From IMG/VR virus record IMGVR_UViG_3300000285_000003: DNA of 64,000 nt. One strand, 5' to 3'. The position numbers were made by a program, and so were the translations under genes. Below the pieces are notes generated by a model. That model was not told where the DNA came from, made no database searches, and saw only the letters and a program-made list of their open reading frames with translations. The stretch is from a virus. Below, piece by piece: positions 25,694 through 59,820 of this stretch (position 1 is the first letter of the stretch; each line of letters begins with the position of its first letter).

Positions 25694-25792
25694 ATCTAGC
25701 CTTAAAACACCAGAAGCCTACTAGGCACCGCTTAAGGCATCCTAATAGGCTTCGATGTTATTATTAGCCATTTTAAGCTCCTGTGAGAGCCT

Positions 25793-38243: not shown

Positions 38244-38254
38244 AATTAGTCATT

Positions 38255-39172: not shown

Positions 39173-39185
39173 ATTGATATGTATT

Positions 39186-39229
39186 TAAAAACAAAAAGCC
39201 GAGATAGGGCTTATTACCCCACCCCGGCT
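39186..39229 (-). terminator. Rho-independent-type terminator after gene 39235..40365
   Basis: On the minus strand, AGCCGGGGTGGGGTAATAAGCCCTATCTCGGCT (outer stem AGCCG/CGGCT) is followed by TTTTTGTTTTT. It starts 6 nt after the TAA at 39235-39237. Confidence 0.6.
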
Positions 39230-39234
39230 AAATA

Positions 39235-40365
39235 TTAAAATTTCTTTTCGTCGTATGCGTTTGCATTACTAATAGGATTTGCTATGTTCTGACGAGCCTA
39301 GATCATATTCTGAAGCTTCTCTACAAATCCACCAGCAATCTCTACAGCACCAGTTGTAAACTTTTCACCATTATTAGATGCGTAAATCTCAACTGTCTGC
39401 TTTGTTCTGCGCCACAAATCATCAGCTGTTCTATACTGGTTCTCGAACTCGATTGTGATACCATCGTATTTGTTATCGATATTTGTAACCATAGCTGGCT
39501 GAGGATCGTACCAGCAGCTACGATGCAAAACACCCTGGTAGTCAAATGATGCACGTTCGCGATCACGAACAAGCTTAGCTGAAGCAGGATATGTTGTACC
39601 TTCCTTCTTTGAGAAAGCTGCACCAAGATCATACTTGTTATTAGATGCCCAACCTGGAGCAGCTGGATTCATCCAATACATATTTGCATCAAAGCGACCC
39701 TTCATGTATACGTTTTCTGTTCTATTAGACTCATCGTCATCATACTTCATTGCTGTAAGAATGAGCTTCTTCTCAGCAGCTTTAGCGTATACTCTCTGAC
39801 GCTTTGGAGCACGAATAATATCCTTTACAAGACCAGCGATAATCTGCTCAACACCGTCACCAACTTCTGTAACGTAGCTATAAGACTCTGTCCACTTACG
39901 ATAGCGCATTGGCATATCTTTAAATGTAAGACGAAGTACCACAGGGCAACCACCCTGGGCAAGAACCTTAAGTGTTTCTGTCGGTACGTTTGTAAAGTCT
40001 ATTGTGATCTGATCTTCAGCATCGTCCTTATAGTCGAGCTTTGTTACAGACTTAATATCTGCAACATTGATGATATTTGACCACTTAATAACTGGGACAA
40101 ACTTAACGGTGCCGTCCTTACCAACCTTCTAAAAACTATCAGATGTAATAACGCCAATCTTGAAACGATCTGCGTTTTCATCATAAGAATAAACATCTGT
40201 GATAGCTGTACCATCCTGTGCAGATGGATCGCAGTTCATAAATACAAACTTACCAACCAATGGCTTAAGTTCTGCTTTTGTTTCCTTGCCAGCCAAATCT
40301 TCGGCTGTAGCAAGTGTCTCACCGTTCTTGTTAGAAACAAGGACTGTATTTACATATGTAATCAT
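39235..40365 (-). CDS. Probable abundant structural protein, 376 aa (function unassigned)
   Basis: ATG at 40363-40365 (upstream TGA at 40387-40389) and TAA at 39235-39237. There are only 2 in-frame TAG (40129 and 39298). It is followed by a strong terminator. It joins track ORFs 40129..40365 and 39298..39942. Confidence 0.8.
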
Positions 40366-40442
40366 ATTAAAATTAATTTTTTCTACTCACCCTATAATAT
40401 TAATGCTAGACCTAACTAGCTGGGCTTTCCACGTTAAAATTA

Positions 40443-41138
40443 TTATTCTTGTGTATTTACCTCTTGAGTTATAGTTCTATAGCGCTCGTCTTTCTTATTT
40501 TCTAAATACATTTGAGCAGCAATCTTTATAATCTCGGGCATAATAATATCCTCGAAATCCTCATATTCATCATAAGGATTATCGAGTGTTATTTCTGTAG
40601 GCTTTCTGAGATAACCTAAAGAATATTTACTAATCTTATATTGTTTATCTGTTAGCAACATACATCCATTAGAGTTTCTCACACGTAGAGGTCTAGCTCT
40701 ATGAAATCTGTAATGGAAGTCTGTAAGACTGTTGTTAACTCTGTACATAAAATTATCCTACGTGCACTCAAACATGCATGTATTGATTTTATTCTCTCCA
40801 TCAAGATCGCTTATTACTACGTCCTCATTGAGTGAGAACATGAAGTTTTCTGGATAGATTATAGTGTAAGATGTATATGACGGCTGACTTTCATCTACAG
40901 TCATATTTGTTGATGTGTAAGTCTTCTATTCGTATAGTTTAATAAGATCTTCTCTACGCTTTTCATTTTGTTCGTACGAAGTTCCGTGAACAAGATCGCT
41001 ATTAAATCTAAGCTTAATAAACTTACAAACAGCCTAATTGAGCCAGAATAAAGATTCGTCAGTAGATGGTTTGTCTAGCTGGCTATCAAATTTATTTATC
41101 TCTCTTTCTAGCCCTACTAAAATATCTATATTCCTCAT
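40443..41138 (-). CDS. Head/connector-module protein, 231 aa (function unassigned)
   Basis: The ATG at 41136-41138 overlaps the upstream TAA (TAATG). TAA at 40443-40445, with 3 in-frame TAG. It extends track ORF 40443..40748. Confidence 0.75.
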
Positions 41139-41884
41139 TACTCAGCCTCCTACTATTTTGGTTGTGATTTCTATTTAGAATTACCCTAAGCAAGTTTTAG
41201 TTTATACTGAGTCAAATACATGTCTACAGCACCTGACACGAGCTCTTCAAAACATGAATACGGAAGCGAACAATAACTATGTACAGCTCCAGCAGACTGA
41301 TCGCTGTCATTAAACTTTAATACATTGAATGCATTAGGCTGGCAATAGTATATAAGATCCACACTATCTATCTATGTATATACGTCAGATATAACCTTAA
41401 ACTAATTACTTGTATAATTAGTGCTTTCAAATATAACTAATGGATTTTTTATAATCCCGTTATAGTTGTAGTACGCATTGATTACGTTGTCTACATCTTC
41501 TTGCTTAATAAGTATATTTGGTGTAATTACACCATCTTCTAAAACCTTATCACTTTTATAATTTTTTGTAACGATGCTTTCAGATCTTACGTACATTGCA
41601 TAATCTTCAGGCAATTTATATAAGCCATCATCATTTGATGTCTTTATATTAACTCGCCTAATTAAAGATCTACTAACATCGCTTATTCTTTTAGCTCGTC
41701 TAGTACCACGTTGAAAATCATCTTCTGTAGAATACAGCATTTTTACATACTGTGTCTAGAACTCGCTTAAGAATGAATATATTGTATCGGTGCTAAGTTT
41801 CTATTCTGACGCAAACTAAGGATATACTTCAATTAGTCTACGTTCAAACTCAATACCAAGTTTTCGTGTTTCTTCTCTTGTCAT
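41138..41884 (-). CDS. Head/connector-module protein, 248 aa (function unassigned)
   Basis: The ATG at 41882-41884 overlaps the upstream TGA (ATGA). TAA at 41138-41140, with several in-frame TAG. It contains track ORF 41402..41740. Confidence 0.75.
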
Positions 41885-42609
41885 GATTCAAGTGGTCTAG
41901 TATTAGCTTTAGTAGTAAGTCTACTAGATTCTACAATCTCGGTAGACATAATAATTGACAAATTAATTAATTCTTCTGCCATGCTATCAGATAATTCAAA
42001 TTTAGTCTATCCGAAATCATAGTCGTTTACTGATAGTCCTGGTCCAATAGCAAATTTTGCAGGACGTTTAATATATGTGAATTCAGCCGTTGACTGAGCT
42101 CCATTATATTGTACATCCATTGGATCTACATATACCACAACATTGTTGTTCTCTATGCATCCTACAGGCTACTCAATCCAAGGTAGATTTGTTTTTGTTA
42201 CCTTAAATTTTTTAGCAACATCATGCGATACGAATACTATATTTTCATATTTATGGTTCTTGTTATCATGAGAAGTAATATTCTCTTTGATTTCAATCTG
42301 TCCATCAATTATGTATAAAACAAGATTATCTATAGTGTGCGTAGCGAATGTATAGCTATTATCGCCAGATAAACTACCAACGGCAGTTAATTTGTTAATC
42401 AATGGCTATAAATCTTCGATTGCTTTCATATCTGACTCAAACGCTGACCTTCTAGGATTGTTTCCTGTATATTTTTGAGCTATAAGAGCTAGGTAGGCTT
42501 TATCGAGTATTGTAGCAATCTCATATTTAGTTAGCGACGGATATGACGAAGTTATATTTGCCTTGTCATATTCAATCATAAACTTAGTATAAATATCACT
42601 ATGCGTCAT
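41881..42609 (-). CDS. Head/connector-module protein, 242 aa (function unassigned)
   Basis: ATG at 42607-42609 (upstream TAA at 42616-42618) and TGA at 41881-41883. It joins track ORFs 42406..42609 and 42169..42402 through TAG. Confidence 0.75.
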
Positions 42610-42624
42610 ACGTCGTTAGTTTAA

Positions 42625-43377
42625 TTATTTATTTTCGATCTGATTAATAATCGAGATCTTTAAGTCTTGATTCTTCTTTGCGTCCAAGTATGCAATACAA
42701 TCCTACAATGAGTCTGCAAGCATCTCAGAACCATAGTAATACTGTGTTCTATCCTTACGGATAATACCTTTGGCAATAGCACTCTCGATCAAGAACTCTG
42801 TTTCCTTTGTCTTGTTATTAACCCACTTTGTAAAGAAGTTCTGTGGCTGTTTATCAACCAATGAGAACAATGTAGACTCTACAAGCTCATTAGACATTGT
42901 GTCAGCGCTAACACCGAACAGTCTAAGACACTTACGCATCTCTTCGAGAGAAAGCTTGCCAAAAGCAATAATAGCGTCTCTACGAAGCTTGTTAATCTTA
43001 TTCTTCTCAATAGCTTCGGCCTGTCTATTAATAAGCAGGTAATCCTTACCAGCATTGAGTTTATCAAGCGATGTGGCTACTCTCTTATGTCCCTCAAGGA
43101 ACTTAATAATCATAGCCTATCGTGGGAATGAGTCATCAAGAATTGTGCTCTTAGAGCCAACCTTAACACAGAATGTATTCCAGAATGGTGAATTTTTAGC
43201 GAGATGGCCTTCTGGATAGCCAAGCTCCTTTTCAAATTTCTTTTCGTCCTCAGGTGTTAAACCTGTGTATATCGACCCAGATCTGGTAAAGTAAGGTGCA
43301 ATATAATCAAAACAATGTTTATACTTTAACAATCCAGCCCAGGGATTTTTCTTTCTGATCTTTAATTCAACTACCAT
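42625..43377 (-). CDS. Capsid-module protein, 250 aa (function unassigned)
   Basis: ATG at 43375-43377 and TAA at 42625-42627. It joins track ORFs 43117..43377 and 42703..43113 through TAG codons at 43117 and 42703. Confidence 0.75.
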
Positions 43378-43409
43378 AATTTTTCAATTAGTTGTTGCAA
43401 TGCCAAGCT

Positions 43410-43430
43410 CCCACCCTATTTTGGGTGGGG
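43410..43430 (-). terminator. Stem-loop downstream of the capsid gene (possible attenuating terminator)
   Basis: On the minus strand, CCCCACCC AAAATA GGGTGGG forms a 7-8 bp GC stem 27 nt after the MCP stop. There is no clear U-tract, so terminator function is uncertain. Confidence 0.35.
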
Positions 43431-43456
43431 TTGAACATTGTATATTATTTTATTAA

Positions 43457-44992
43457 TTACGCGAGCTCTGCTGCTCTATTCTCGACTGCAATAGTCTCCT
43501 GGTCTTCAGCATCGCAATACAAGATACCACATGACAATGGGTTTCTCAGCATGATACCCTCTTCACCAAGGAAGTGTACCTGGTAACCATCACGGCTGTT
43601 AGAACGCATAGTGTTGATGTTATTTGCATAACCATTTGGCAATACAGAACCACCAGTACACCACTGTACGAACTCACGACCCTTACGACATACCTTAACG
43701 ATGTTAGCCTGACCATCACGGCGACCAAGGTCAACGAACAAGAATGTATAAGACATCAATGGTTTACCTGTCAATGGGTGAAGCTGACGGAACATTTCCA
43801 TATTATCAAACATAGCACAACGCTTAACTGTCAACTCAATACCATTAGTCATAGTGTAAGTTGTGAACTGACCACCCAACTTCAAGTCCTGACCAGAACC
43901 TGTAATGAAGTGTGTATCAATCATATTGAAGCTAGCTGCCTTCTCCTTCAAGATACGGTCGAACTCACGGATACCCATCTCACCAGTCAAAGCAACGAAC
44001 TTACGCTCGTTAGTACCAATTATGTTGTAGCAGAGATCGAACAAGTAATCCTCGAACAACTCTGTAGTCAGCTTTGTATAGTAACGTACGTTAGCTGGAG
44101 CAATCTGCTCGAACAAACCTGCAGAGATTGGAACGAAACGGCCATTAGTACCCTTCAAATTGTAAGTACCATCTGCATTACGGTTAGAGTGAGCGAACAG
44201 CAACTGCTTCTCCTCTCTCTTCTTCCACTCACGAAGAGCCTTCCAATACTGGTAGTCAGACCACAAATAAGACTTCTTACCTGTCTCAGGATCAGTCAAA
44301 GCGATAGCCAATACTGTAGAGTAAGCATCACCAGTGATATCGTAAGTAAGACGCATAGTCATCAAGCTATTACGCATCTTAAATGGAGTCTGATAATTGA
44401 TAATATCTGCCTCATCACTGTACTCCTCGTAAGCAGAACCGATACGGTCTACCTGACGACCTGGGAGCAAATACTCGCAAGGAATATAAGAACCCTGGAA
44501 GCCTTCTGCTACATAGCACTCATATACCCATGTGCTACCATCCTGGTATGGAGTACCATTTACACGTACCTGGAAGTTTACGTTGTCAAATGCAAGAATT
44601 GCACCTGGACCAAACCACTTCTCTTCAAGACCAAGATAAATAGGAGTATTGTTAATACCTGGAGTCAAACCTTCTGTAATTGACTTAGGAGTAATCTCCT
44701 TACCATTCCACTTAGCATAGCGGATATTAACAGCGTGATCAGCATCAATCATTACAGACCACTCGTATTCTCTGTTTTCGATAGTCATGGTTGAACCAAG
44801 ACCACCAGTTAACAAGTCGATGGTAGTTGAAATACCATCATCCTTTGTACCAAAAACCAATGACAACAAGCCTGCTACTTCATGAGGCTTTGTAAGCATT
44901 GCGTTAGCAATCATGTTTTCGTCTACCAAGTCAGCAAAACGCTTACCACGGTAGAGCTGAAGATTATTTAATAAAGAACTTGAATTATTCAT
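43457..44992 (-). CDS. Major capsid protein (crAss-like type), 511 aa
   Basis: This is an intact 511-aa ORF even in the standard code, with no in-frame TAG, and it ends in TAA. It lies directly downstream of a scaffold-like gene within the terminase/portal/scaffold module. Its composition differs from its neighbours and a GC hairpin follows it. The call rests on size, position and resemblance to crAss-family capsid proteins. No alignment was run. Confidence 0.75.
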   Translation of the reverse strand: MNNSSSLLNNLQLYRGKRFADLVDENMIANAMLTKPHEVAGLLSLVFGTKDDGISTTIDLLTGGLGSTMTIENREYEWSVMIDADHAVNIRYAKWNGKEITPKSITEGLTPGINNTPIYLGLEEKWFGPGAILAFDNVNFQVRVNGTPYQDGSTWVYECYVAEGFQGSYIPCEYLLPGRQVDRIGSAYEEYSDEADIINYQTPFKMRNSLMTMRLTYDITGDAYSTVLAIALTDPETGKKSYLWSDYQYWKALREWKKREEKQLLFAHSNRNADGTYNLKGTNGRFVPISAGLFEQIAPANVRYYTKLTTELFEDYLFDLCYNIIGTNERKFVALTGEMGIREFDRILKEKAASFNMIDTHFITGSGQDLKLGGQFTTYTMTNGIELTVKRCAMFDNMEMFRQLHPLTGKPLMSYTFLFVDLGRRDGQANIVKVCRKGREFVQWCTGGSVLPNGYANNINTMRSNSRDGYQVHFLGEEGIMLRNPLSCGILYCDAEDQETIAVENRAAELA

Positions 44993-45010
44993 AATATGTT
45001 AATTGTCTCA

Positions 45011-46207
45011 TCATAGGTATTTTGACGCGAGATCCCATGCCTGAGGTTGTTTTTCATGCCCAACATTGTATGATGTATGATTTTTTGTTTGGTGTTTGAG
45101 CATTTGTCTAAGTTTACTCGCAGCAGATGTCTGACCATTGCGCTGTGCTTCGCCCAGTAGAGCATCACCCTTCATTGTGAAGTAGGCTGATTCTATCAAA
45201 TTGTTAACAAGGTTATTATTAAAAGCCTTCTGATACTCTGTTAAACCGTCTGCATCAGTTCTTGTGATATAATCGAACAACGCTTTTCTATCCTCCTTTG
45301 GAATATTGATACCTCTAATATTTGTAAGACTATTAATACTAGAAGTAAGATCGTTCATGAACTGTGCAGCTTGCTGCTCTTGTTCCTGTCTTTGAGCTTC
45401 CTGTTGCTGAGCCATATACTCTTGCTGTTGCTATTCGTACGCCTTAAGATAATTTACAGCATCAGCTGCTTCATCTTCCAGCATGTCAGCATCTTCATAG
45501 CGCTCAATCTTGCGACTAATCTGTTCGTCGTTCATTCCCTATAATTTATAGAACTCGCGAACAGCTGCTTTCTGATTAGATTCGTCCTCCAAATCTATGT
45601 TATCGTAAGACATAGATTTCTGTTGTGTCTGATAGAAGTCTTCAAATTTACCACCATTCTTTACGTACTGATCAAGTCTAGCAATACGATCATCGGCGTA
45701 CTATGGGGTTGAATTCTCATCTACGACATCTTTGATATACTCTACGAGGTCCTCGACTGACTTAGGTTTCTCGTCTGCATCAACACTCCAACCATTAGCT
45801 TCAGCGAATGCGTCAAAGAAAGCACCAATCTATTCTGCTTCTCCAGGATCTACGACGTCAGTGTCAGTCTGCTGATCATTATCATCATTGTCGTTATCCT
45901 ATTCGTTGTCAACTGTAGTTGAGTCGGACGTATTATTATTTAAAATATTATCTGGGACCTCTGTATCATCATCATGAGCGTTAGGATCACCAGTTACATT
46001 CTTATTATCTTTATTATCCTCAGAAGACTTATCGTCATCTGGATTGTCTAAATTATCAATATCATCATTAGGGTCATCTAACACCTGATTAACAACATCC
46101 TGGTTATCGATGTCTGTAACGCTGTCGCCACCTTCCTGGCCACCGAACCCGAGAGAGCTCAAAGCGTCTTCAAAATCACCTAATGGATTTTTCTTCTTTC
46201 TTGCCAT
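45011..46207 (-). CDS. Scaffolding-protein candidate, 398 aa
   Basis: ATG at 46205-46207 and TGA at 45011-45013, with 5 in-frame TAG. It joins track ORFs 45899..46207 and 45011..45415. The N-terminus is strongly acidic and low-complexity, and the middle is Gln/Glu-rich and helical-looking. It sits immediately upstream of the capsid gene. Confidence 0.6.
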
Positions 46208-46249
46208 AATTTAAATTATAACTAAGTTAATATTTTTAATTGTTGTACG

Positions 46250-46274
46250 CTACACGGGAGTCGAACCCGTGTAA
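46250..46274 (-). other. tRNA T-arm-like hairpin just after a stop codon
   Basis: On the minus strand, TTACACGGG-TTCGACT-CCCGTGTAG forms a 9-bp stem. Its loop matches the tRNA T-loop consensus (TTCGAnT). It begins 5 nt after the TAA at 46280-46282. I could not fold any acceptor, D or anticodon arms around it. Confidence 0.5.
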
Positions 46275-46279
46275 TGTTA

Positions 46280-48172
46280 TTATTTATTCCACTTTGATGC
46301 ATTACGCGCAAAGTTGGCTTTCTTTCTCATAGCCGCACTATACTTACTTGGATTTCTTAAGACCCTATTAGCAAAGCCCTGAACACTCATACCGTGCTAC
46401 TTAGCAGCTTTAGTAAATGTACCGCGCTTAGATTTCTTTATATGAATATCTTTACCGGAATTATGAAATTGCAAAAGCTATGGATACATTTTATTTTCTA
46501 ATGGTGTAGGTGTTCTTCCAAGGCCAATATTTATTTTGTGATCCTAAATATGGAACGGAAGATCATATTGTATGTCAAATGGTTCTGCACCAATATATTT
46601 ACCAACCTCTAAATTATTCAGATAATTATAAATGTCTGTATTTTTGTAATTGAAATTCTATAAATAATCTCCAAACTTTATTCCGGATCTGCCAATTATG
46701 CCTCTTAATCCGCTATTATTTGTAGCTGTCCTAGTAGCGCCACCTTTATCTATAATATCTGATAACTTAATTTTCTGACTTGTTGTCATCCAATCTGGGT
46801 AATCCATTCTATCAAATAATCCCTAATTTCTATATCCGATAAAGTCTTTTGATTTGGATTTTAATCTTGTACCAAATTTATTTATAGACTTAGTTCTGTA
46901 CTCATTAAAGAAATTAGATATCTTTTTATTTATTCTCTATCCAGGCATTAAATCCCAAGTATCGTTTACCTTTATAATGCCTTCTATTGGCTTTTTATTT
47001 AATAATTTAGTTGAAACAGACACATTCCCACCGGCACTTGTAATAAAGTCTTTATCAGTGAATGGTGTTCCAGCGTTAACTACTTCTATATCTCTAGCAC
47101 CGCCACCATAGCCTTTTCCTTTTAATTGTTTTAAAGCGTCTATATTGGTTAATTTTGTTCCATCAGTTGCAGACTATGTAAATTGATAATCTCCAGATTG
47201 CGGCAATTTCAAATACCTCCTATACGCATTAGCTCTTGCCTACAAAGCAATATCTCCATCTACATTATATGCTTTTTCAAAAACACTTTTAAGAGCTTTG
47301 CCAGCAAAATTATTCTAAGTCCAAAATGCTTTATTGATATCTGGTGCACTACCTTTTAAAATATAATATGGCCACGCAAGAGCTGGAGCAACAAGTTTTC
47401 TTGCGGAATAAGAAGCAGGAGGAAGATAGCTATATAATATAGATCTTGTGAAAGCGTTGTTAAATGGATTGTGATTTTCTTTTGATAGTTCAAGCAATTC
47501 CTTTGTGTTCTAAATTTTATCAGAAAATTTTTCACCAATCTTAGATCCTATCATTATATCAAATAACTAATCGGCAGCTCTTCCTGTTTCTCCGTAACCA
47601 CCATAAAGTCCCTAATTACTCTCTTCCCATGGCATTCCTGTTCCGCGCAAAGTTCCAATCCATCTAGTTGGCGACAAAGTTGTCATAGCCTTACCGATTT
47701 TACTAACCTTGTCGTAATATCCAGATGCATCGTATCCGTTTTGCTTCATAATCATTGCTGGATAGTTTATTGCAGCTTCTACTGATTTATCAAAACCATG
47801 AACAACGCCATTAGGATCCCAATATGAAGACGTATTATGTCTACCAGCAGCAGCCCATGGGTTAGCTTTTGATTTATCTCCAATAATTTCTACTTCAGGT
47901 AATAGTAATCCGGCGCTATAAAACGGTTCTCCTGTTTCTTTGTAATAAAGCATTCCATCTTTAACTTCTAAAGGAGCACCTGTTTCTGATTTGATGCCCT
48001 TACCGTCTCCAAACTTAGGAAGCTTAAGTTTCTTTCTAAGCTACTTCATAGCTACCTACTAATCTGCTTTAGCCTACGCTTTTCTTCTACGTTTGATCTT
48101 ACGAAAGAGCTTATGACGCTGATAGTCATTCTTCTTCTACATCTTTCGCTTAGGACTTTCCATCTGTTTCAT
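46280..48172 (-). CDS. Hypothetical virion/head-module protein, 630 aa
   Basis: ATG at 48170-48172 (upstream TAA at 48185-48187) and TAA at 46280-46282. The hand-scanned frame has no TAA or TGA and many TAG. It contains track ORFs 47612..47953 and 47315..47497. The C-terminus is basic (KRGTFTKAAK(Q)HGMSVQGFANRVLRNPSKYSAAMRKKANFARNASKW). Confidence 0.75.
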
Positions 48173-48174
48173 AA

Positions 48175-49197
48175 TTACATCAATTTAAGATTGTTACCTC
48201 TTCTCCACCAGAACTTCTAGCCATAAGAGTCTTTGCCAAAGTTATTAGATGGAAGCAAGTTTAGTATATTCGGAAGTGAAGGCTATGTTATACTATCGTA
48301 CATCTACTGTTTATACTTATTAAGATCACGCTATTGCTGAGCCTTTATTTCTTCCTAAGTTGGACCAAGTAGAGTTGTAGGAACATCTGCTCTAATAGTA
48401 CCAGGCTATCTTGTAGATGGCGAATTGATAATTATAGGACTAGCATTCTTTGTGTCTTCATAATCCTACACAAGATCATCAAACTTAACATTATAGTTGT
48501 AAGCGTCTTTATGATTAATTCTGTGATAGTGGGCCGCCTTTACCAAGCTGTCCATTCCTCGAAGGTTTCTAGAATAATTCTCGAGAGAATCTGTGTAATA
48601 CCCCTTCTGTTTGAGAGCCCTAGCATAATCCTATGTAGATTTAGCTCTAAGCGCTGCTCCGTATCGTGTATGCATAAGCCTTACATAATCCTTAACGAAA
48701 TCCGCATCGCTCTTATATGTATTGTAAGTCTTACCATTCCAGCCTACTCCACCATAATTGTGTTGTCTTCTAGCAACTCTAGATCTACCATAATTAGATT
48801 CGTATGCAAGCTAACGCATTACATTGTAAAACGCAGCATCACCATAACCATATCTGTTCAGCTATTGTCCTACAAGAGGGCCCATTCTGTTAACAAAAGT
48901 ATTAATAGAATCATCTTTTCCACCTTTATATTTATGAAGTATAGGATGCTCTTCATTTAATGGAGTGTCAAAAGGTAATGGCTTAATAATGTCTTCAGCT
49001 ATATTAACATCCTTTCCTTCATCATAAGCATTAAGTATAGACTATACATTCTGATCCATCTACAGCTACTCTTCTGGACTAGGTTCCTCAGCCTGGGTGT
49101 TTCCACCCAAGTTGATTCCTCTAATATCCTTCCAGTAATCAGCGCCATTCTTCCACGCCTCATACTTCTACTAAAATGTCTTGTTGTCAAACTTCAT
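48175..49197 (-). CDS. Putative virion-associated peptidoglycan hydrolase (glucosaminidase-like), 340 aa
   Basis: The ATG at 49195-49197 overlaps the portal TAA (TAATG). TAA at 48175-48177, with about 15 in-frame TAG, so it is absent from the standard-code track. The segment YESNYGRSRVARRQHNYGGVGWNGKTYNTYKSDADFVKDYVRLMHTRYG...ALKQKGYYTDSLENY resembles the FlgJ/LytD-type N-acetylglucosaminidase core. Confidence 0.55.
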
Positions 49198-51668
49198 TAC
49201 TTCTCGCCAGATGTTTTATTCTTAAGGGCCGTGCGAGCCTTAAGTTTCTCGCGTTCATAAGCAGCATCATCCTTAGCCTTCTGCAGCTCTGTCTCATGCT
49301 TCATCTTATCCTTCTCAAGCTAAATCTTCTGATCTTCTATCTCGCGCTTCTGCTTAGCTTCATAACGCTTATTATAAGCATCTTGATTAATCTTCTGCTG
49401 CTCGATAGCCTGTTTACCAATTTCTACTGGATCTGGGATTCCATTTTGATCCTGATCTAATTCCTCGGTTCCACGATAAGCATTAATCTGTGCTACAGCT
49501 ATCTTAGTCTGATTATCTTGATCAATCTGATATCTCTGAAGATCCATCTGAGCTTCCTGTAACATAAGCTCTTGCTGCTTAGCTTCATTCTGCATCTGCT
49601 GTAACTGCTGTTGCTGCTGAGCTTCTGCCTCCTGCTGCTGTTGCTGTATCTGCTCCTGTCTAGTCTACATATCCTTAAGCTTCTGCTTAATAATATTGAA
49701 GTTATCGTTTGTAAGAATCTCTGCTGCTTCAAGCAAGCTAGCACCATTCTGCATAGCTGGCTATATAAGCTGCTGAAGCTTCTGTATGTTCTCTAGATCT
49801 TTAGACGTATCACTTACGAATACATCCATATCCTCATAGTAGAACTTAGGAGTAATATCCAAGAATGCTCTTTCTCCATTATCAAAGATATACTGGAGCT
49901 TTTGTTTGCCAGTCTCTTCCCAAGCACCCTTAGCTGTATTAAGAAGCATATTAAGAACTCTTCGCTTGCACTGGTTATGAACCCAGAATAATGGTTCAGT
50001 AATATGCGAGCTCTGTACTACAGATCTTTCTACATTACCTACCATCTCTGATGTGCTTACAACTCCTTCACGCTGCTATGTAATACCAGAGATCGTTCCA
50101 GCCAGTTCTTCTATCTTATCCATTAGCTGTATATATTCAGCTATGACGTTAGACATTGTAAGATCCAATGCTGTAATCTGATTGAACTGAGCAGGCTTAC
50201 CACCCTCTCTTCCTGGGATATTCCAACCTTCTTCATATGGGTTAATAAAGTTAACACCAACACTAGACAAGTAATGCATCCATTTAGCTGGGCTAATATT
50301 CATAGACTTAGGAATCTATGTAATATCCATGTTTACAACCTTACCTTTATCTCTGGCGATAGCTAACTCAAGTCTGTACCATAATACAATATACATATAC
50401 TACAATGGCTTAAGAATGCTAACCAATGATCTAGGCTTACTATTTGTGTTACTATAAATAGCACCACAATAAGGAAGCTTCTGGCTATTAGGGTTATCGA
50501 TACTTACATGCTGATACTCGATAGGCTGTATGCCAAAGTATAAATCGCTACCAGCTCTATATCCTTCCCATACCTCTATAATCCAATCTGGTTCTACACT
50601 AACCTCGTTACCAACAGGCTGATATGTTTCATCAACTATATTGATCTAAGGCTGTCCTGCGTCATCTGTAGTTGTTACGTAAAAGATCTTCTTAAAAGAC
50701 TTCCAGCAACAATGCCATACATTTACAAGCGATTTACCAGATCCTTCAAATATCGGGTTATCATATATACGTAACTATATGCCCATATCAACAGGACTTC
50801 TGTCTCCAAGGTTTCTGCCAGGAGTAGAACCAATCATTTCTTCAAGCCTATCAAGATCCTTCTCTTCAAGCTTGTCGTAATATCTATCGTATACTTCAGC
50901 TATAGGCATACGCATCTTTCTGCAACACCATGATCCATCCTCAATAAAATCAAGGTCTGGACTTTTATCGTAAGAGAAACATATAGGATTAACTCTTTCC
51001 GCATATGGCTCTGCATTAAGTACGCCAACGTAATAAATTTCTCTACCTGAGATCAATCCGTCCTTCCAGCCTTTGATAAACTCGTTGTCAAGATCAAGCT
51101 TCTCTCTCAGATAGGTAAGAGAATGATATGCAGTATTCTCTACAATATCTTTGTAGTCTTTGTCCATATACTTAGCTATCTACTCTGGCGGCATAATCTC
51201 TCCAGACTGTAGCTACTCCTGGAACTACTGAGCTTCTTCTGGGCTCATTTTAGCTGTGATAGCTGCTTCTATATATTGTAGAATCATCTATTTCTCTTTC
51301 TCCTGCATTTCAGATGTAGCCTCCTATGAAGTTCTGATAACTCTGAAGTTAAGAGGTCTTTTTGTTTCCTCACCTATAAGCAAATCTACTTTAGGTCTTA
51401 TAATATTAAAGTCGTGAGGAGTAGCAGGAAAACCATCCTCGACCTTGAATGGGTTTGTAATTGATTTAAAATCCTTCTCGTCGAAGATGCTGTTATATAA
51501 ATTATAATAGGTCTACAGCTCTCCGTAATATGATGTACTATTTCCTCCAGATGTTACGTTACCTTCACCTATAATATAGTTAACGCAATCTTCCTGCCAC
51601 TTCTTTCCTTTCTTTGAAAGAGGGAGCTTTTGTCTGGGGAAAGCTGAATTGTATAAGTTATCTTCCAT
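49197..51668 (-). CDS. Portal protein, 823 aa
   Basis: The ATG at 51666-51668 lies 3 nt after the TerL TAA, and the gene ends with TAA at 49197-49199. The hand-scanned frame is open with about 15 TAG. It joins track ORFs 50775.., 50076.., 49761.. and 49320... The portal call rests on size, position directly after the large terminase, and a Gln-rich C-terminal tail. Confidence 0.7.
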
Positions 51669-51671
51669 GTA

Positions 51672-53735
51672 TTAAAATGTGAATATCGGCATACCGTCTT
51701 CACTTGTGCTGCTATCTTCTTCAAACCATTGTTTGCTAAATAACGGCATCTCGAAGAGTTCAACCTATTTGTTTTGTTCTTTTGCAGACGACACCTTTAG
51801 CTAATAGAGCTCCTCTCTGTATATCATTACCATACACAAAGCTATAACTCGGTCTACATTTCGTACACCATCATTCTCTATAAGCTCTTCTATTAGAGGT
51901 TCGCTGTATACTCTTTCTACATTAGGGTGGCCTTCTTCAAACTCATCTAACAGCCACTCTAATATTAATCCTTCGCCATACGCCCTAATTTGCTTGGTCA
52001 TGTGGCATCCTTTTCTTCTTTGCACTTTGCTGTCTTTAAAGACTTCAGATATGATTTTATCTGGCTAATCAGCCAAGAGGTAATCGCAGTGTTTATTCGT
52101 AAAGTAAGGGTAGATTCCTTTTCTTTCATTCTCAAATAATAATCTAGCGTTATAAAATGTAAGCAGCTTGCGAACATTCTCATAGTATTCTTCTGCTGTA
52201 TCCGGTCTTCCGGAATACTCTGCTACTATTACATCTGTCCATGCTTCACCAGCTCTTACGCGTTTAAATATAAATGTAGAACCAAGAGAGTTTGTAAAAC
52301 TATCATCATGGTCGTATGGGTCGCATCCTCCTATATATAATCCAAGCGGAGGATCCTTTACTGGGTACTCCCATATAACTACAGATCCATGTGGCTTGTC
52401 TCCCTTCTTAAGAGGGTAGTTAGTTATATCACCACTAGGCTTCTCTGTAGCCTTTACCTGACCATTTCCATCCCATTCTAGATCAACTATATGCTTCATG
52501 CTTTGTAGCTTCTTGTTGGTCCTTATTCTTGTCAACTGGTCCATTAATAACTTTCTAGGGAATATATTCTTACCGAGCTCCAATACAGCTTCTGCTGGCC
52601 TTATAGGACGCTCTGATATAAAACGGTCTATTGACTGCTAACTAGCACCTCCATCTTTTACCTTGTTTCTCTAATCTATAAGGTTCTCTATAGCTTTCTC
52701 TTTATAGCTATTTCCATCCCTATCCATGTAAACCTAATTACCGTCATCATCAAATGACTCTAGGTTTGAATATGCTGGAACAAAGAATGCACATTCAGTA
52801 TTCTCTCTGCCTTCATCCCATATATTAGGGAAGCTGAGAACATTATAAGACTTAGGCTTATAGAATAATTCTTTCAATCCTTCGAAGCTAGCCCCTTCGG
52901 TACCACCGGTACCAAATGCTATCATCAATCCGAACGCTTTACCATCATCTGTTTCTACTGAAGGCTGTTCTATACGCCATGCATCAAGAAGGCTAGGGAA
53001 TTTACCACCTTCCTCCCATAGTACAAGCTTAGCACGTGTACCACGCACACGTTCTGGATCGTTCTTAAGAGTTATTCCTGTTATACTGGACAGGTATCCT
53101 TGTTCGGTTTGTTTACCAAACTCATCTGTGATTTTATAACCGGATGTTCTTTCCATACGTGTAGACACAAGTCTTTGCTTAGCCCATGCTGTATGCTTAT
53201 CAAGGAAGTCCATTATCTGCCAGGCTTTAGTTAACAAACCATCACCTATAAGGAATTTCTGTTCTGATGCTATAGCAAAGTTCTTCGAACCTGGTATAAG
53301 CATATAGTTTCTAACTAGCATAGATCCACCCTTAAATGAATATCCTCTCTGTCTGCATTTGAGCACAGCCATATGCTTTCCTTCCAACTCTGCTTGTTCT
53401 ATAGCGCAAAAATAATAGTAATCATAGTCCCAAAAGCTAGGGAATTCAAGTATACGTTGTCTCCTCTTTCTAAGGTTACCCTCTCTATCTGTATACTCTT
53501 CTTCCTTTAGTCGCATGATTGGACTATAATTTAGATAGAAGTAATTGTATCCAGTTATACCTTCTCCATCTGGAGCCGTATAACCATTAATGCATCTATC
53601 TGTCTCTTGCTCCCAATATTTGTTATAATCAGTAGTACCTCTAGGAGCTAAGGTATAGCATCCATGCTGTTGAAAGAAGATAGCTGCCTATCTAAACTTA
53701 TCAGTATCATGGAGTCTCTAATTAAAGTCTATCAT
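51672..53735 (-). CDS. terL: Terminase large subunit, 687 aa
   Basis: ATG at 53733-53735 and TAA at 51672-51674. It joins track ORFs 52734..53516, 52065..52583 and 51801..52025 through TAG. It has an ATPase-like segment (VLKCRQRGYSFKGG ... KLVLWEEGGKFP) and a nuclease-like acidic segment (GGCDPYDHDDS). Confidence 0.8.
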
Positions 53736-53737
53736 AA

Positions 53738-54247
53738 TTATTCGTACATACCAATAATGCCACCACCCTTGACTCTACCGGTTTCTGCTTGTTCTGCTTT
53801 TGCCTACTTCATAGCCATGTCTAACGACTTGATTATTCCGCTAACATCTTTCAATATAGCTGAAAGCTTCTTAGCTGTATCTATATCAAGATCTTCTTCA
53901 GCATAGCTATCCATCGTGTTCATAATGCCCTCTGCTGCGCTCTTAGAAGATTTAAGCAGCCTGGTAGCAGGAGTCTCTTGGAACTCCTGGAACCTTTTTG
54001 CTAATTCTTTTACAACGTCATCAGGTTTATAATTCTCATTATTAAGTACATCTTTAGCTACTCTCCATGTGCGTTCTTTCTCTGGATATGCCTCATATGG
54101 GCTATTCCATTTATATCTCCACACTATGAATTCAATCTTCTTTAACGCATCTTGTTTATCTTTAGCATTGTTGTAGAAGTCTTTAAATGGTGGTATAGCT
54201 AAATCTTCTGTGCTTAATTGTATTTTATTCTATATGATGTCAAACAT
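53738..54247 (-). CDS. Small-terminase candidate / hypothetical, 169 aa
   Basis: The ATG at 54245-54247 overlaps the upstream TAA (TAATG). The TAA at 53738-53740 lies 2 nt before the TerL ATG. It extends track ORF 53804..54124 on both sides through TAG. The functional call is by position only. Confidence 0.45.
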
Positions 54248-54567
54248 TACTTAAATAGTCTTTTAAGCCAACTATAATGTTTTCTTGTTTTTAAATAATC
54301 TAAATTGTACTAGTTACTGTAAGCTTCTCTCTCAAAGGAAAGATTTCTATACGCATTTCCTTTACAGAACAGTTTAAATAACCATTCTACTCCATACCAC
54401 AAATAAAATGGTACATATAGCATTTCTTTCATCTATTCTGTATGTATCTGTTCATGGTTGATTGTAATATCAGTTATCTTAGCATTTGGTCTACAGAATA
54501 GATATCCAAATAAATTAATCGCCAGAAATCCTTTTGGAGGAAGTATGTTCTATCTAATTATTTTCAT
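54247..54567 (-). CDS. Small HExxH (zincin-like) protein, 106 aa
   Basis: The ATG at 54565-54567 overlaps the upstream TGA (ATGA). TAA at 54247-54249, with 2 in-frame TAG. It carries the motif INHEQIHTEQ, and its C-terminal half is hydrophobic. Confidence 0.6.
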
Positions 54568-57236
54568 GACCCAAATCCTCTACTAGATACTTTTAGTGTT
54601 CTATCGGCATCCATCCATAAAACTCCTTCAATTTTTGGATCGCTTGTAGGCAGACCATCTAATATATATAATATATCATCCGATGACGCATTATCAATTC
54701 TCTTTAAATGAAGCCCTTTATTATTATAACTATTTGTTAATGTTACAAAATCATTACCTGCAACATCGTGGCCGCTAAGATCTATATATGGTCTACCGTT
54801 ACCATCATACAATCTTATACTTTGTTCAGTAATACTAGAACAATCAAAACCCTTGTTATCATTTTTGTTACTATAGACAGAAATTTCTCTATCAAGTGGA
54901 TCGATAATTATTTTTCCAAAGCTTTTCATAATTAATCTAATTGCCGAAGAAAGTGAATCTGGATCTATAGTATATTCAAAATTAGCTAATTCTATCCTTT
55001 CGTCGCTAGATGGGAGATATGTTCCATCTGTATATGAGTCATCTGTAATACTAACTGGTCCGATTATTTTAAAAGAACACTACTGCGGATTGAGTTTAAT
55101 GCTTTTACCCTGTTGTGTATTTTGCATAACAATTGACCCATTTGAATCTATTGTGGTATACGCCGTTGTTAAGTCTCCAGTTGTCTGCATTTTTCCTGCC
55201 CATATTCGTACGTCACCCTTATTCGTAACCTTCCCATTAAGATCCGACTTACTATCAATCGCCTTACTAGAAGTCATACCCGCTACGATTGCATCACCGT
55301 CCATTATAACAACTTCTTCTGATGACAACTCTTTAACGTAAGCCTAATTTGCTATTATCTTATCAGCTACAAAATTTTCTGTAACTGCGAACTTCTGAAA
55401 ATATGTAGCAACATCAGGAGTCATTACCCAATGGTCGGATTCTCCGGTATCTGCATTTACGCAAACATAATACATGTTTTCATAAAGTACGACATCTTGA
55501 TAGAATATACCGTTTTCAGCATCTCTCTTTCCATCATAGTACTTTTTACCACTAGCCCATGCACCAACAATTCTTAAAGGTGAACCTTTGAACGTTTGTC
55601 CAATAGATCCGTCTCCAGGATCACCTTTATCTCCAGATGACGATACAGGAATAGTCATAGATGTAAGATATGCTCCATTTTTATTCTCTGCATATATAGT
55701 AATAGTGCTAGACTTAGACTATACAGTTGCATTTACTGAAGCGTCCCAATGATCTGTGTTATACTGTAAAGTTGTTCTATCGTTCGAGTTTATCTACATA
55801 TATAGATTATACAGACTTGCATCAGTACTATTTACAGCGCTTTCGTTTTTATACAAATTAACATTACAGCTCATCTATAAGTTGTAATTCTAATCTGCAG
55901 GAACGTATGATAACGATATGTTTGAAAGCTGTAATGAATAAGTTACTCCATTAAGTCCATTTATGCCAGACCTAACGATTGGAACATATTCGTTTAACAT
56001 TATTGCTCCATTTGTTGCTTTAAACAACATTCCATTATCACCTTCTGTTTGAATCTAATCAGATGATATTGTGGTCCATGTATCTCCTCCATCAACACTA
56101 TATGAGAACGACCAACCAGAACCATTTGATGGTGTAATATTTGTAATCTACGAGCCATTGCTTTTTACAACATATACACTAATAAGATTTGGGTACATTG
56201 TACCATCTTGATAATTAATAGTACTCGTAGAAGTTTTAATATCGTATGATACAGCGTTTTCTCCTGCAGTTCCAGTTAAACATATTGGATTTGTGTATTC
56301 TCCATACTATCCATTACCATTTATGAATACTTGTGTCATCCATATGTAGTATCCAGCTTCCTAATTTGGAGCATCATCAACCCACCCAGAACCGTCTTCA
56401 GGTGGTCTATTTGCACTAGGTTTACTTGGCGCTACAGAATTACTTGGGTGTTTTTTGAAATAAGATTTGCTATATCCAAATTTAGTATAGTCTATACTTG
56501 AACTAGCACCACTAATAGGTATTTTTATGTCGCGCCCACTTTCAATAGAGTACGCCTTATCGTTTATTATCAATTTTGATAATGTGTTCTTTTTAATATA
56601 ATTTAAAAGCTACTGCTATACATAATCGGTATCTACTCCACCACCAGATCCGCTTTCAGATAAAGCAACTCTAAACTAACCACCATTCTTCTATGTAAGA
56701 ATAAGCTCATTGTGTTCCAATGTAAAGCTCTCTATAGGATAATCTTTCCCTATAGTAGAGTCTTCGATTATCTTCTATATCTAAGCTATAGTATAATAGT
56801 TAGTGGGATCAAATTTTATATAGTCAGCCTTGTTTAAATACGTAGAATCGGCATTCTCTTTTGTAACATACTAATCAAAGTCAATATTACTAATAGCGTC
56901 ATCAACATATTTCTTTTTAGCATACTCTTCAATATTTAAATCAGTAATAGCACCCGCTATCTGCCTAGACACTTCTATCAATATTTCTTTCTTTATAGAG
57001 TTATCTCCGTCTCCAGCTATTTCGTTTAGCTTATTTTGAAGATCTAGTAAAGCAGAATTGCTAGCCTTTCCATTCCATTCATCTCTTTCTTCCTAAGATA
57101 TATGTGAGACAGAATCATTTTCATGGCAGCACAATCTAGAATATATTGACGAATAACACTTGTCTATTTTAAAATCTAATTCTCCGATTGGATTTTTGCA
57201 ACAAGGCTTTTTTGGTTCTACGCAAAAATTAATCAT
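54564..57236 (-). CDS. Tail-fibre-type protein, 890 aa
   Basis: ATG at 57234-57236 (upstream TAA at 57255-57257) and TGA at 54564-54566. The hand-scanned frame is open with many TAG. It joins track ORFs 56361.., 55344.., 55080.. and 54564... It has a Cys-rich N-terminus, a coiled-coil-like stretch, then Ser/Thr/Asn/Gly-rich beta-type sequence. Confidence 0.75.
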
Positions 57237-57510
57237 ATTAATTCGTTTAAATTGTTAACAATTATTGTACTGTGGTGTCATCGAAGACCACGTCTAAAAC
57301 GCCACAGTTAAAGATTATTTGAATTTATCCCAATCTATATTTTCCTTCTTTCCTACAACGTCTGCCACCCATCTACAAAACTGAATTCCTGTATATCCAT
57401 CTAGGGGTGATAAAAGTCCTACCCTGGTACGCATTTGAAAAGATGCGTGGCAGAATCTGTTGTGCTAGGCGGGGCAGTGAACCCCGTCATGCTTTCATTA
57501 AGACCTAGCT
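57237..57510 (-). ncRNA. 274-nt structured non-coding leader/intergenic region (candidate regulatory RNA)
   Basis: There is no open frame in any reading, even with TAG as sense. The region looks locally GC-richer than flanking coding sequence. It contains a tRNA top-half-like minihelix (57464-57509), a long-range stem domain (57355-57463), alternative hairpins (57269-57308) and a 14-bp palindrome (57250-57263). Confidence 0.4.
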
Positions 57511-58707
57511 TTATTCAAGATTTAAAGTTTGTTTAATTAGACCACTTGTACTAAGTGCATCTATAAGATTTATTACAATAGTTCTTAGTTTTGTGATATC
57601 AGCTGTTTCTATATCTGTAACATCAACACTATTAACTGTGATTTTATCCTATTTTTTCGACAGGCCTACTCTCAAACTGGAAATGCTATCATTCACAGTA
57701 TTAAGACTATTCGCAAGTGCATACTTAGCATCAGCATCTTGCTATGTTATAAAATTAGAGTCATTAGTAAGCTGGCTAACATTTGTAGGAACAGTAGGGA
57801 GCTCCGTCTTTAAAGCAAAATCAGATATTGGTTTAAATGTGCCATCTGAAGTAGCTAAACAATTGTTATACTTGTCAGAAGTTATTCCATTAATAGAATA
57901 TGTTGTTCGAATGGCTTGCCCTTCCTATATATTCTAAAAATCAACAAAATGTAACTAACTATAATTAAGATAAAAAGCCCCATCCTAATTACCACCAGTA
58001 ATATTTGTGCTCTAGATTGATACACCTTCGTTATTATTAGTTACATAAAGATTTTTACCAATACTATATTGCGAATTAGTACTTGAATCATAAGGAATAT
58101 AGTTGCCAGCGTCCTATTTAGCACTAATAGCAGCATTCAGCGTATTAATCTGCTAATTAAGCGCTGTTGTAAGAACGTAGTTACTAAGTGCGGTAGCGTC
58201 AGCCTTTTCTGTAATAGCCTGATTTAATGCTGTATGCAAGTCATCGTTACCAGCAAGTTTGTCAGCAATCTCTTTAAGTGTATCAAGATCTTCTGGGGCA
58301 GCAGCAATCACATCGGCAATAGCTTTTCTAAATGATCCTTCTGTGTTTGAATCACCATCAACTATTGCAAGCTTATCTGATATCTCTTTCTCTTTACCTT
58401 CTGCTCTAGTCTGCTCTGCCTTAATCTTAGCATTTAAGTCTTCATCACTCTTTGTACGAGCGCTTGTTTCAGCTTCAAGTAAATCCTTTGTAACATAATT
58501 ACCATTTTCAATGCTATTGTCTATAGCATATTTTACAGACTGATCAATAAGTTTATTTGTAGAGTTTGCATCCAGTATGTCTCCATGCATAAATTCACCA
58601 CCTTCAAGATCAACCAATATTTCTGGATTTCTGACCTATTTACCAGGTGCTGTTACGAGTGCATTCTTTACTGGAACTCTATATAAAAAATCTTTTTCCT
58701 AAATCAT
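57511..58707 (-). CDS. Tail-fibre/coiled-coil structural protein, 398 aa
   Basis: ATG at 58705-58707 (upstream TAA at 58765-58767) and TAA at 57511-57513. The hand-scanned frame is open with about 12 TAG. It contains track ORF 58153..58617, which has repeated helical heptad-like segments typical of fibre shafts. Confidence 0.75.
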
Positions 58708-58732
58708 AATTAATGCATTAATGTGTTTAAAC

Positions 58733-58767
58733 AGTAAAAGGGAACTACCTTTCGGTAATCCCCTTTA
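58733..58767 (-). terminator. Rho-independent terminator after the dUTPase gene
   Basis: On the minus strand, AAAGGGGATTACC-GAAA-GGTAGTTCCCTTT forms a 13-bp stem (2 G:U pairs) with a GAAA tetraloop, running into a T-tract. It starts about 11 nt after the TAA at 58778-58780. Confidence 0.65.
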
Positions 58768-58777
58768 TGTAAGCGAA

Positions 58778-59335
58778 TTAGGCCTATCCTTCGCTTACCT
58801 CAGCACCTTCTTGTGCCGCCGCTGACTCTGGTACGGACTCAACCTGTTCCTTAAGCTGTGACTGAGTTCCCGTAGCTGCGCTAGATTCGTTTTCGTGTCC
58901 TGTGCCAGTAGAACCAAATCCGCCATCGCCTCTCTCTGTTGACGAAAGCTCAGAAACCTCTGTGATTGTATACTCTGGTATAGGAACGATGACTAACTGA
59001 CAGAAGCGTTCGCCCTGCTTGTAAACAGCAGGAATTGTATCTGTTGTAGCCTTCATGAATGCTACAATCTCGCCTCTATAATCACTGTCGATAACACCGA
59101 CATTATCAGTAAGCCATAATGACTTTTTCCAAATACTAGAGCGTGGTATAAGTAAACCAACATATCCGGCAGGAATTTCAACTGCCAATCCTGTATGGTA
59201 AACCAACATTAGCTGATTTGCTTCATTAAGAGCTGTTTCAATCTTAGTGCAAGTCAAATCAATTCCTGCAGCACCTTTTGTGCCACGAATAGGGAGGATA
59301 GCGTTATCCTCAAGTCTCTTAAATTTCAACTCCAT
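58778..59335 (-). CDS. dut: dUTP diphosphatase (dUTPase) with an acidic C-terminal extension, 185 aa
   Basis: The canonical trimeric dUTPase motifs are present: AGIDL, PRSS, GVIDSDYRGEI and RGDGGFGSTG. I chose the ATG at 59333-59335, because the track start at 59344 is a TTG. The TAG at 58784 is followed by GCC and then TAA (58778-58780). Confidence 0.9.
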
Positions 59336-59360: not shown

Positions 59361-59431
59361 TTACCCCACTAGGATTCGAACCCAGACTAAGAGTTTTAGA
59401 GACTCCTGTGCTGCCGTTACACCATAGGGCA
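59361..59431 (-). tRNA. Amber-suppressor tRNA, anticodon CTA (reads UAG); Gln-type identity plausible
   Basis: The 71-nt cloverleaf folds as follows. Acceptor stem TGCCCTA/TGGGGTA (U1:A72). D arm GTGT-AACGGCA-GCAC. Anticodon arm GGAGT-CTCTAAA-ACTCT, a 7-nt loop with T33 and anticodon C34 T35 A36. Variable loop TAGT. T arm CTGGG-TTCGAAT-CCTAG. Discriminator A. No CCA is encoded. Confidence 0.9.
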
Positions 59432-59437
59432 ATAAGC

Positions 59438-59474
59438 GCGTAACTTTTATCTGGAGTTACGCAGAACCAGTATT
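59438..59474 (-). repeat. Hairpin/pseudoknot motif, copy 1
   Basis: On the plus strand, GCGTAACT-TTTATCTGG-AGTTACGC forms an 8-bp stem with a 9-nt loop, then AGAA, then CCAGTATT. The loop CTGG is complementary to the downstream CCAG. Confidence 0.6.
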
Positions 59475-59610
59475 AGCGCCATTTGGATCCTGCAGCTCCG
59501 AGCGCCGCTAGGGCAGAAAGCTTTTGTTTCACCCGGATATCCCAGTTTATAGAGATTTCAGAAATGGCGACAACCTCTCAGCGATTATATTCGCCCGTCT
59601 TCTTTGACTC

Positions 59611-59643
59611 TTATAAGTTTTAGCTGGACTTATAACCAGTATT
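59611..59643 (-). repeat. Hairpin/pseudoknot motif, copy 2
   Basis: On the plus strand, TTATAAGT-TTTAGCTGG-ACTTATAA forms an 8-bp stem with a 9-nt loop, followed directly by CCAGTATT. The loop and flank match copy 1 except for one loop base. The stem sequence is entirely different but still fully paired. Confidence 0.6.
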
Positions 59644-59746
59644 GGGTCCCTGTGTCAGCTTACCATGGTAGCCTTTTGTTTATAGTGTACACACAGGGAT
59701 GCCACTCATATTATCAATCTAAATATTAAAAAAAATGAATATGTTG

Positions 59747-59820
59747 GAGTCTATGCAGGAGTCGAACCTGCTAACTATTCCCTTTGTATCGGGTCGTCTT
59801 TACCGTTTGACTAATAGACT
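59747..59820 (-). tRNA. tRNA-like gene with a non-canonical anticodon arm (pseudo-tRNA or unusual tRNA; anticodon undetermined)
   Basis: The acceptor stem (AGTCTAT/ATAGACT), U8, D arm (GTCA-AACGGTAA-AGAC) and T arm (GCAGG-TTCGACT-CCTGC) are all good. The anticodon region ACCCGATACAAAGGGAA only forms CCC/GGG with an 8-nt loop GATACAAA, and the region is one nt longer than standard. Confidence 0.5.

Follow-up and report, generated by a model that had tools for sequence, protein, structure and literature searches.

Suppressor tRNAs and the recoding of TAG to Gln in the late genes of crAss-like phages have already been described (Yutin 2021, PMC7886860). For crAss-like phages of about 105 kb, a recoding model was put forward in which recoding times the late and lysis genes and the host GlnRS charges the suppressor (Borges 2021, bioRxiv 10.1101/2021.08.26.457843). 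Analysis by LC-MS/MS revealed Gln at TAG in two crAss-like phages (Peters 2022, PMC9523058). The gut phages that use code 15 combine a phage-encoded tRNA(CUA) with the reading of TAG as Gln, mainly in late, structural and lysis genes, and with a host that uses the standard code. The stretch of viral DNA analysed here (the window, 64,000 nucleotides of IMG/VR record IMGVR_UViG_3300000285_000003) resembles them in all these respects and, compared with the published code 15 phages, its gene represents one specific allele, that of the Burzaovirus lineage. In E. coli, the suppressor supE (glnV44) is a tRNA-Gln whose anticodon CUG was changed to CUA and which inserts Gln at UAG through GlnRS. The window tRNA is similar to supE in its Gln-type body, its U1:A72 pair, an anticodon CUA that is one base away from CUG and the predicted insertion of Gln via GlnRS. 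It differs from supE in being encoded by a phage, in carrying A73, as the tRNA-Gln of Bacteroidales does, instead of G73, and in having the anticodon loop CUCUAAA with A37-A38. Further, it serves hundreds of sense-like TAG codons, whereas supE acts by leaky suppression of rare nonsense mutations. Phage T4 possesses a tRNA gene cluster with small stable RNAs and the homing endonuclease SegB. Likewise, in the region described here tRNA genes lie beside small-RNA-like elements, in a variable region with homing-endonuclease genes. This analogy holds for the island only, since T4 belongs to another phage family and its tRNAs supplement codon usage, whereas the window tRNA recodes a stop codon.

The window was assigned to the genus Burzaovirus (Suoliviridae, Crassvirales) on the basis of 97-98% nucleotide identity and colinearity with reference genomes. 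Its positions 57000-62000 are 97.6% identical to crAssphage cr124_1 (NC_055899.1), a member of the species Burzaovirus faecalis (Suoliviridae), and 97.5% identical to crAssphage cr7_1 (NC_055895.1), and its positions 15426-63851 are colinear with positions 92878-43647 of cr124_1. For positions 1-15425, megablast found no counterpart in the first 100 kb of this otherwise colinear genome. The 71-nt gene is 100% identical in cr124_1 (KNV57_gt04) and in cr7_1 (KNV53_gt01), being annotated as tRNA-Gln in both, and in both it occupies the same place, between small hypothetical genes and the dUTPase gene at the head of the late-gene strand. This complete conservation across the three sequences occurs despite differing flanks, and the difference lies in the upstream spacer, from which about 170 nt are missing in cr124_1. 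The suppressor is already known, down to the identical annotated RefSeq gene. A search with the portal protein produced thousands of matches, the best 120 of which were all about 98% identical, and this must therefore be a very common gut phage. Outside the part that corresponds to the window, cr124_1 encodes a tmRNA (34357-34713, locus L003) with the tag peptide GNVNNIVDYTNVA, and it also encodes two tRNA-Val(GAC) and a tRNA-Met, none of which lies inside the window.

Application of ARAGORN to the 64-kb window identified one tRNA (59360-59431, minus strand, anticodon cta). The covariance model of Rfam family RF00005 accepts the fold of 59361-59431 on the minus strand over its full length, model positions 1-71 being aligned end to end with 55.6 bits, above the gathering score of 29 (E = 2.8e-9 for a search of all 64 kb). 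An earlier reading made from the letters of the sequence alone (hereafter the sequence-only reading) had described a clean 71-nt cloverleaf with the loop CTCTAAA and the anticodon CTA, and both programs agree with it. That reading did not give the strand; it is the minus one, shared with the late genes and with almost all genes of the window (Table 1). The full tRNA is UGCCCUAUGGUGUAACGGCAGCACAGGAGUCUCUAAAACUCUUAGUCUGGGUUCGAAUCCUAGUGGGGUAA and, by segment, it reads UGCCCUA UG GUGU AACGGCA GCAC A GGAGU CUCUAAA ACUCU UAGUC UGGGUUCGAAUCCUAG UGGGGUA A. It displays a GG in the D loop, the T loop GUUCGAAUC, a 5-bp anticodon stem and a 5-nt variable loop, all of them canonical features. The anticodon loop, CUCUAAA (59401-59395), has 7 nt and contains U33 and A36-A37-A38. 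At the acceptor end, the U1:A72 pair that had been pointed out previously can be read directly in the sequence, together with the wobble pair G2:U71 and the discriminator A73. Alignment of the window tRNA with 13 homologous or related tRNAs (14 sequences) recovered the cloverleaf, with compensatory double changes at 20 of the 22 consensus pairs. The minimum free energy fold of the 71-mer is not a cloverleaf (-20.2 kcal/mol, z -1.17). Thermodynamic folding commonly misses the tRNA cloverleaf, and this result is hence no evidence against the fold. Neither the window nor the first 100 kb of cr124_1 yielded another tRNA with the anticodon CUA.

Table 1. Features of the window around the suppressor gene and in the recoded late-gene block (positions of the 64,000-nt window).
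Feature	Position	Strand	Remarks
Amber-suppressor tRNA(CUA), Gln-type body	59361..59431	-	71 nt, no encoded CCA; ARAGORN and Rfam
Anticodon C34 U35 A36	59397..59399	-	Sequence, covariance-model alignment and ARAGORN anticodon position
Conserved 43-nt leader	59432..59474	-	Directly 5' of the suppressor; function predicted only
Non-coding spacer	59475..59746	-	AT-rich stretch plus the three elements that follow
~130-nt element	59475-59612	-	Within the spacer
Second AAUACUGGUU module copy	59613-59643	-	Stem ATAAGT/ACTTAT (AUAAGU/ACUUAU), wholly unlike that of the first; precedes the ~130-nt element
Hairpin element	about 59643-59705	-	Within the spacer
Degenerate tRNA-like gene	59747..59820	-	Rfam RF00005, 38.3 bits
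Recoded late-gene block	1..59335	-	ORF statistics under alternative stop sets; colinear with cr124_1 late genes
Terminase	51672-53735	-	8 in-frame TAG
Portal	49197-51668	-	14 in-frame TAG
Giant ORF	1-14449	-	128 in-frame TAG; longer than 4815 codons and still open at the edge of the window

The late genes of the window depend on read-through of TAG. Under the standard code, long ORFs cover 52% of the window; with TAG read through, their share rises to 132%, coverage being summed over the six frames with overlaps counted twice. The late block (minus strand below 59400) contains 447 in-frame TAG in 19,657 codons, together with 241 CAA and 334 CAG, and TAG represents 44% of its Gln-coding codons. 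The terminase and portal genes are included in this count, in agreement with the previous claim that the tRNA serves TAG-recoded genes. Because the late genes are recoded, the window must be annotated with code 15. The annotation of cr124_1 shows no TAG in the replication genes (14174-28218) and up to 60 in late genes. All 78 annotated CDS that were checked in this genome end in TAA or TGA and none in TAG; gene calling in the window admitted TAA and TGA alone as stops, and its genes therefore say nothing independent on termination at TAG. The boundary of the recoding is not sharp at the suppressor gene. The five small genes located upstream on the same strand (59831-61596) carry 0, 1, 3, 0 and 1 in-frame TAG, and the dUTPase gene, the first one downstream, has one. 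The description of these upstream genes as TAG-poor in the sequence-only reading is thus correct, but they are not TAG-free, and the block on the other side, which had been called TAG-rich, begins with a gene that has one TAG only. On the plus strand across the divergent region, the ORFs 61699-61908 and 62279-62749 contain 5 and 6 TAG, respectively, and recoding therefore extends beyond the late strand downstream of the tRNA, although the ORF 61699-61908, which is unannotated in cr124_1, may not be a real gene. Since TAG already occurs in some upstream genes and on the opposite strand, it would oversimplify matters to regard the tRNA as a switch for all the genes downstream of it. The major capsid gene (43457-44992, minus strand) has no TAG and no CAA, and all of its 16 Gln codons are CAG; the lack of TAG in this gene may mean that suppression is not fully efficient.

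The residue that corresponds to TAG was analysed by comparison with relatives. ORFs of the window were translated with TAG as X and compared by tblastn with the structural modules of six relatives (cr273_1, cr56_1, cr10_1, cr55_1, Azobacteroides phage ProJPt-Bp1 and Flavobacterium phage Fpv1). After removal of one spurious overlapping ORF, the likelihood of each candidate residue at the TAG sites was calculated from the substitution frequencies of the same alignments and bootstrapped over sites. The 64 TAG sites obtained in this way correspond to 219 aligned residues, among which Q is the most frequent (55), and E, D and K come next. Gln reached a log-likelihood of -547 and the runner-up, Glu, of -617, about 70 units behind. 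Gln was the best residue in 1000 of the 1000 bootstraps, and Glu in none. At positions 424, 452 and 637 of the portal and 602 of the terminase, Q is invariant or nearly so among the relatives. The search for portal homologues was uninformative on the residue, as it returned only sequences about 98% identical and already translated with TAG read through. With high confidence, TAG is predicted to stand for Gln in its evolutionary meaning, and this can be inferred by comparison. The previous statement that the inserted residue could not be determined from sequence alone has to be withdrawn, since the comparison with the six relatives gives Gln in every bootstrap.

The body of the tRNA is also of the Gln type. 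The tRNA-Gln of Bacteroidales (Bacteroides, Prevotella, Muribaculaceae, Dysgonomonas and others) share with the suppressor the U1:A72 pair, A73, the 5-nt variable loop, the general layout and a 3' end with no encoded CCA. GTDB genomes were scanned for the D-arm sequence RGTGTAAYGGYAGCACA regardless of isotype, and 106 of the 115 tRNAs that carry it turned out to be tRNA-Gln (63 UUG and 43 CUG), the other nine being distributed among His (3), Trp (2), Asp (2), Gly (1) and SeC (1). In addition, the standard-code relative ProJPt-Bp1 encodes a homologous tRNA-Gln(CUG), which shares its D arm, U1:A72 and A73 with the suppressor and whose anticodon is one base away from CUA. The compatibility with a Gln-type tRNA that had been noticed from the first pair and the overall body is strengthened by these comparisons. 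U1 is kept in all the suppressor alleles of cr273_1, cr56_1, cr53_1, cr130_1 and the IMG/VR relatives; their position 72 may be occupied by any of the four bases, which leaves pair 1:72 weak or open. Regarding the anticodon bases by which GlnRS identifies its tRNA, C34 and U35 are present, and position 36 is A, that is, the suppressor change itself. G36 is an identity element for GlnRS in E. coli, and supE demonstrates that its change to A is tolerated. The presence of A36 instead of G36, together with the G:U wobble at 2:71, may make charging sub-optimal. The context A36-A37-A38 is typical of tRNAs that read codons starting with U, which suggests that the suppressor loop underwent an adaptation beyond the single anticodon change.

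The similarity of the tRNA core to other phage tRNAs raises the question of whether the suppressor inserts a residue different from Gln, such as Trp, Glu, Lys or Tyr. Positions 4-67 are 89% identical to the tRNA-Trp(CCA) of Bacillus phage vB_BanS_Nate (L012 298-371), in which the anticodon stem is almost identical and the change of C35 to U alone would yield CUA, and the core is about 81% identical to Streptomyces phage tRNAs annotated as Arg. Because phage tRNAs annotated as Trp and as Arg share this core, overall similarity of the body is not decisive by itself, and it is the acceptor end and the analysis of the TAG sites that therefore decide for Gln. The acceptor stem of the Bacillus phage tRNA differs, with A1:U72 and G73, whereas U1:A72 and A73 of the suppressor match the tRNA-Gln of Bacteroidales. 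Trp is the worst of the 20 residues at the TAG sites (-1154 versus -618 for Gln), and the distance of Glu from Gln has been given above. Acceptor and discriminator bases and the TAG-site likelihood led to the rejection of a Trp-type origin. Work on E. coli has established that CUA anticodons attract GlnRS, which also counts against a residue other than Gln. With the Gln identified by proteomics in related phages (PMC9523058) pointing in the same direction, insertion of another residue is very unlikely. The name 'Pyl' that ARAGORN gives to the gene, which would make it a pyrrolysine tRNA, goes back solely to the CUA anticodon and to the naming convention of the program. The special architecture of tRNA-Pyl does not include the canonical D loop, T loop, 5-bp anticodon stem and 5-nt variable loop of the suppressor. 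Neither pylS nor pylBCD is annotated in the near-identical cr124_1, and the TAG sites align with Gln, so that this label was rejected and can be regarded as effectively refuted.

It could also be argued that the tRNA is a relic or a bystander and that read-through is achieved by a host suppressor, by inactivation of release factor 1 or by one of the odd tRNA-like genes. Published surveys report many recoded phages with no detectable suppressor (PMC7886860; bioRxiv 10.1101/2021.08.26.457843), and the locus is highly variable in close relatives, a few of which are without a recognisable canonical allele. However, the gene is kept without a single change in the window, cr124_1 and cr7_1 while the flanks differ, an exact-motif search located some CUA-anticodon allele at the same place in 23 of 29 relatives, the cloverleaf shows compensatory evolution and this is the only CUA tRNA found; we give this explanation only a very small chance. 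An offensive main role, in which read-through of host UAG stops harms host or defence proteins and the recoding of the phage is secondary, was proposed as a possibility by Yutin et al. (PMC7886860), and a side effect of this kind is compatible with the locus. As a main role it is highly improbable: with TAG making up such a share of the Gln-coding codons of the late block, the phage needs the suppressor for its own translation, whatever the effect on the host. The gene, which lies near the 5' end of the late strand, very probably encodes a functional Gln-type amber suppressor for the late genes.

The genes of the late strand begin at the divergent region (about 61.6-61.7 kb). The suppressor gene follows about 2.2 kb further downstream, and its orientation indicates that it is probably co-transcribed with the start of the late-strand unit. 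A scan for sigma-70 promoters and intrinsic terminators around the island, in which Bacteroidetes and phage promoters were not modelled, gave no more sites than shuffled sequence and is therefore uninformative. What we infer about the transcription unit and its timing, the processing, the charging by GlnRS and the efficiency of suppression can be arranged in the following route. A pre-tRNA would be made with the conserved 5' leader hairpin, trimmed by the host RNase P and by 3' processing, and provided with its CCA end by the host CCA-adding enzyme, after which the Bacteroidales GlnRS of the host would charge it with glutamine. The anticodon CUA would then pair with UAG in competition with release factor 1, and the approximately 450 in-frame TAG of the late genes in the window would be read as Gln. 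Bacteroidetes have GlnRS and lack GatCAB (PMC3927822), which makes direct charging by the host GlnRS the likely route. The annotation of the near-identical cr124_1 contains no release-factor gene and no synthetase gene.

The non-coding stretch of about 400 nt that lies upstream is more unusual than the suppressor itself. The leader that directly precedes the tRNA consists of AAUACUGGUU, a hairpin (stem GCGUAACU/AGUUACGC, loop CCAGAUAAA) and CUUAU, in this order, and its conserved form is AAUACUGGUU, a hairpin with the loop CCAGNUAAA and then YUUAY. Wherever this leader adjoins a tRNA (Met or Sup), both in related IMG/VR contigs and in the window, the 10-mer starts 44 nt before the tRNA. The pairs of the stem vary among relatives between G:C, G:U and A:U on the transcribed strand, and an upstream CUGG could form a pseudoknot with the CCAG of the loop. 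No further occurrence of the leader module was found, either elsewhere in the window or within the first 100 kb of cr124_1. The missing nucleotides of cr124_1 mentioned above (about 170 nt) lie between two AATACTGGTT repeats (59475-59643) and are present in cr7_1 and in the window; their loss looks like the result of recombination between the repeats. Neither the spacer elements nor the leader module matched a family in Rfam, and the fold of the 315-nt spacer (z = -1.04) is not significant. At the far end of this stretch lies the degenerate tRNA-like gene, which was missed by ARAGORN and is unannotated in cr124_1 and cr7_1. Its acceptor, D and T arms are normal, and its anticodon arm consists of a 3-bp CCC/GGG stem and an 8-nt loop, GAUACAAA, replaced by GAUAUAAA in some relatives; a G at position -1 is placed opposite C73. 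This gene was found in 27 of the 29 genus-level relatives collected through the dUTPase gene, in which it is 96-100% identical, compared with 65-87% for the upstream gene, 87-98% for the dUTPase gene and 67-93% for the suppressor. No other sequence of the region is as well conserved; neighbouring genes reach 65-98%. Text searches of the Yutin, Borges and Peters papers found no description of the leader module, the degenerate tRNA-like neighbour or the allele diversity, and literature text searches for odd anticodon loops in Crassvirales tRNAs returned nothing.

The position between the tRNA-like gene and the dUTPase gene was surveyed for suppressor alleles in the IMG/VR loci L135-L190. At least five very different tRNA(CUA) alleles share this slot, at the identity given above for the suppressor, while the flanking dUTPase gene is 87-98% identical to that of the window (87-99% in another listing of these loci). 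Two of the alleles are candidates recognised by eye. One of them has a non-canonical D/T elbow (for example, in L184 at about 2405) and is recognised as a tRNA by neither ARAGORN nor Rfam. The other is split by an insert of about 230 nt in the anticodon loop (L176 at about 2714 and L190 at about 81), and Rfam found no group I intron and no match to an intron family in the insert of L176. The surroundings in relatives include tRNA-Met, tRNA-like genes with anticodon loops of 6 or 8 nt and ORFs similar to HNH or GIY-YIG. Inspection by eye of cr130_1 (L014, about 370-960) revealed a 5' half of a tRNA (GGTGTTTAGCTCAGTCGGTTAGAGC...) and a T-arm/3' half (...GGTGGTTCGAGTCCACC...) at a distance of about 500 nt, with an HNH-like ORF in the gap, an arrangement that suggests an intron-split tRNA. 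Positions 418-495 of the same sequence (L014) give a weak Rfam tRNA match of 27.4 bits. The suppressor might be an interchangeable cassette within a specialised, fast-evolving tRNA island headed by the conserved tRNA-like gene, with the leader placed ahead of the tRNA cluster wherever such a cluster comes directly after this gene, an idea that is tentative and that we hold to be rather doubtful. If it is true, the suppressor would be under diversifying pressure or subject to frequent replacement, for example to escape host defences that target tRNAs, and the tRNA-like element and the leader would have roles of their own in expression, in processing or as a decoy within the code switch.

Because of such stop-codon recoding, standard gene callers break up late genes in phages that are among the most abundant of the human gut. 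The suppressor is the key part that enables the phage to use another genetic code alongside the standard one of its host, and it may act as a timer for the late and lysis genes. It brings no new biology by itself; the variability of the locus and its conserved non-coding partners are what could matter. In conclusion, the variability of this locus and the partners of the suppressor may tell how the code switch is expressed and why the suppressors of many recoded phages have been missed.
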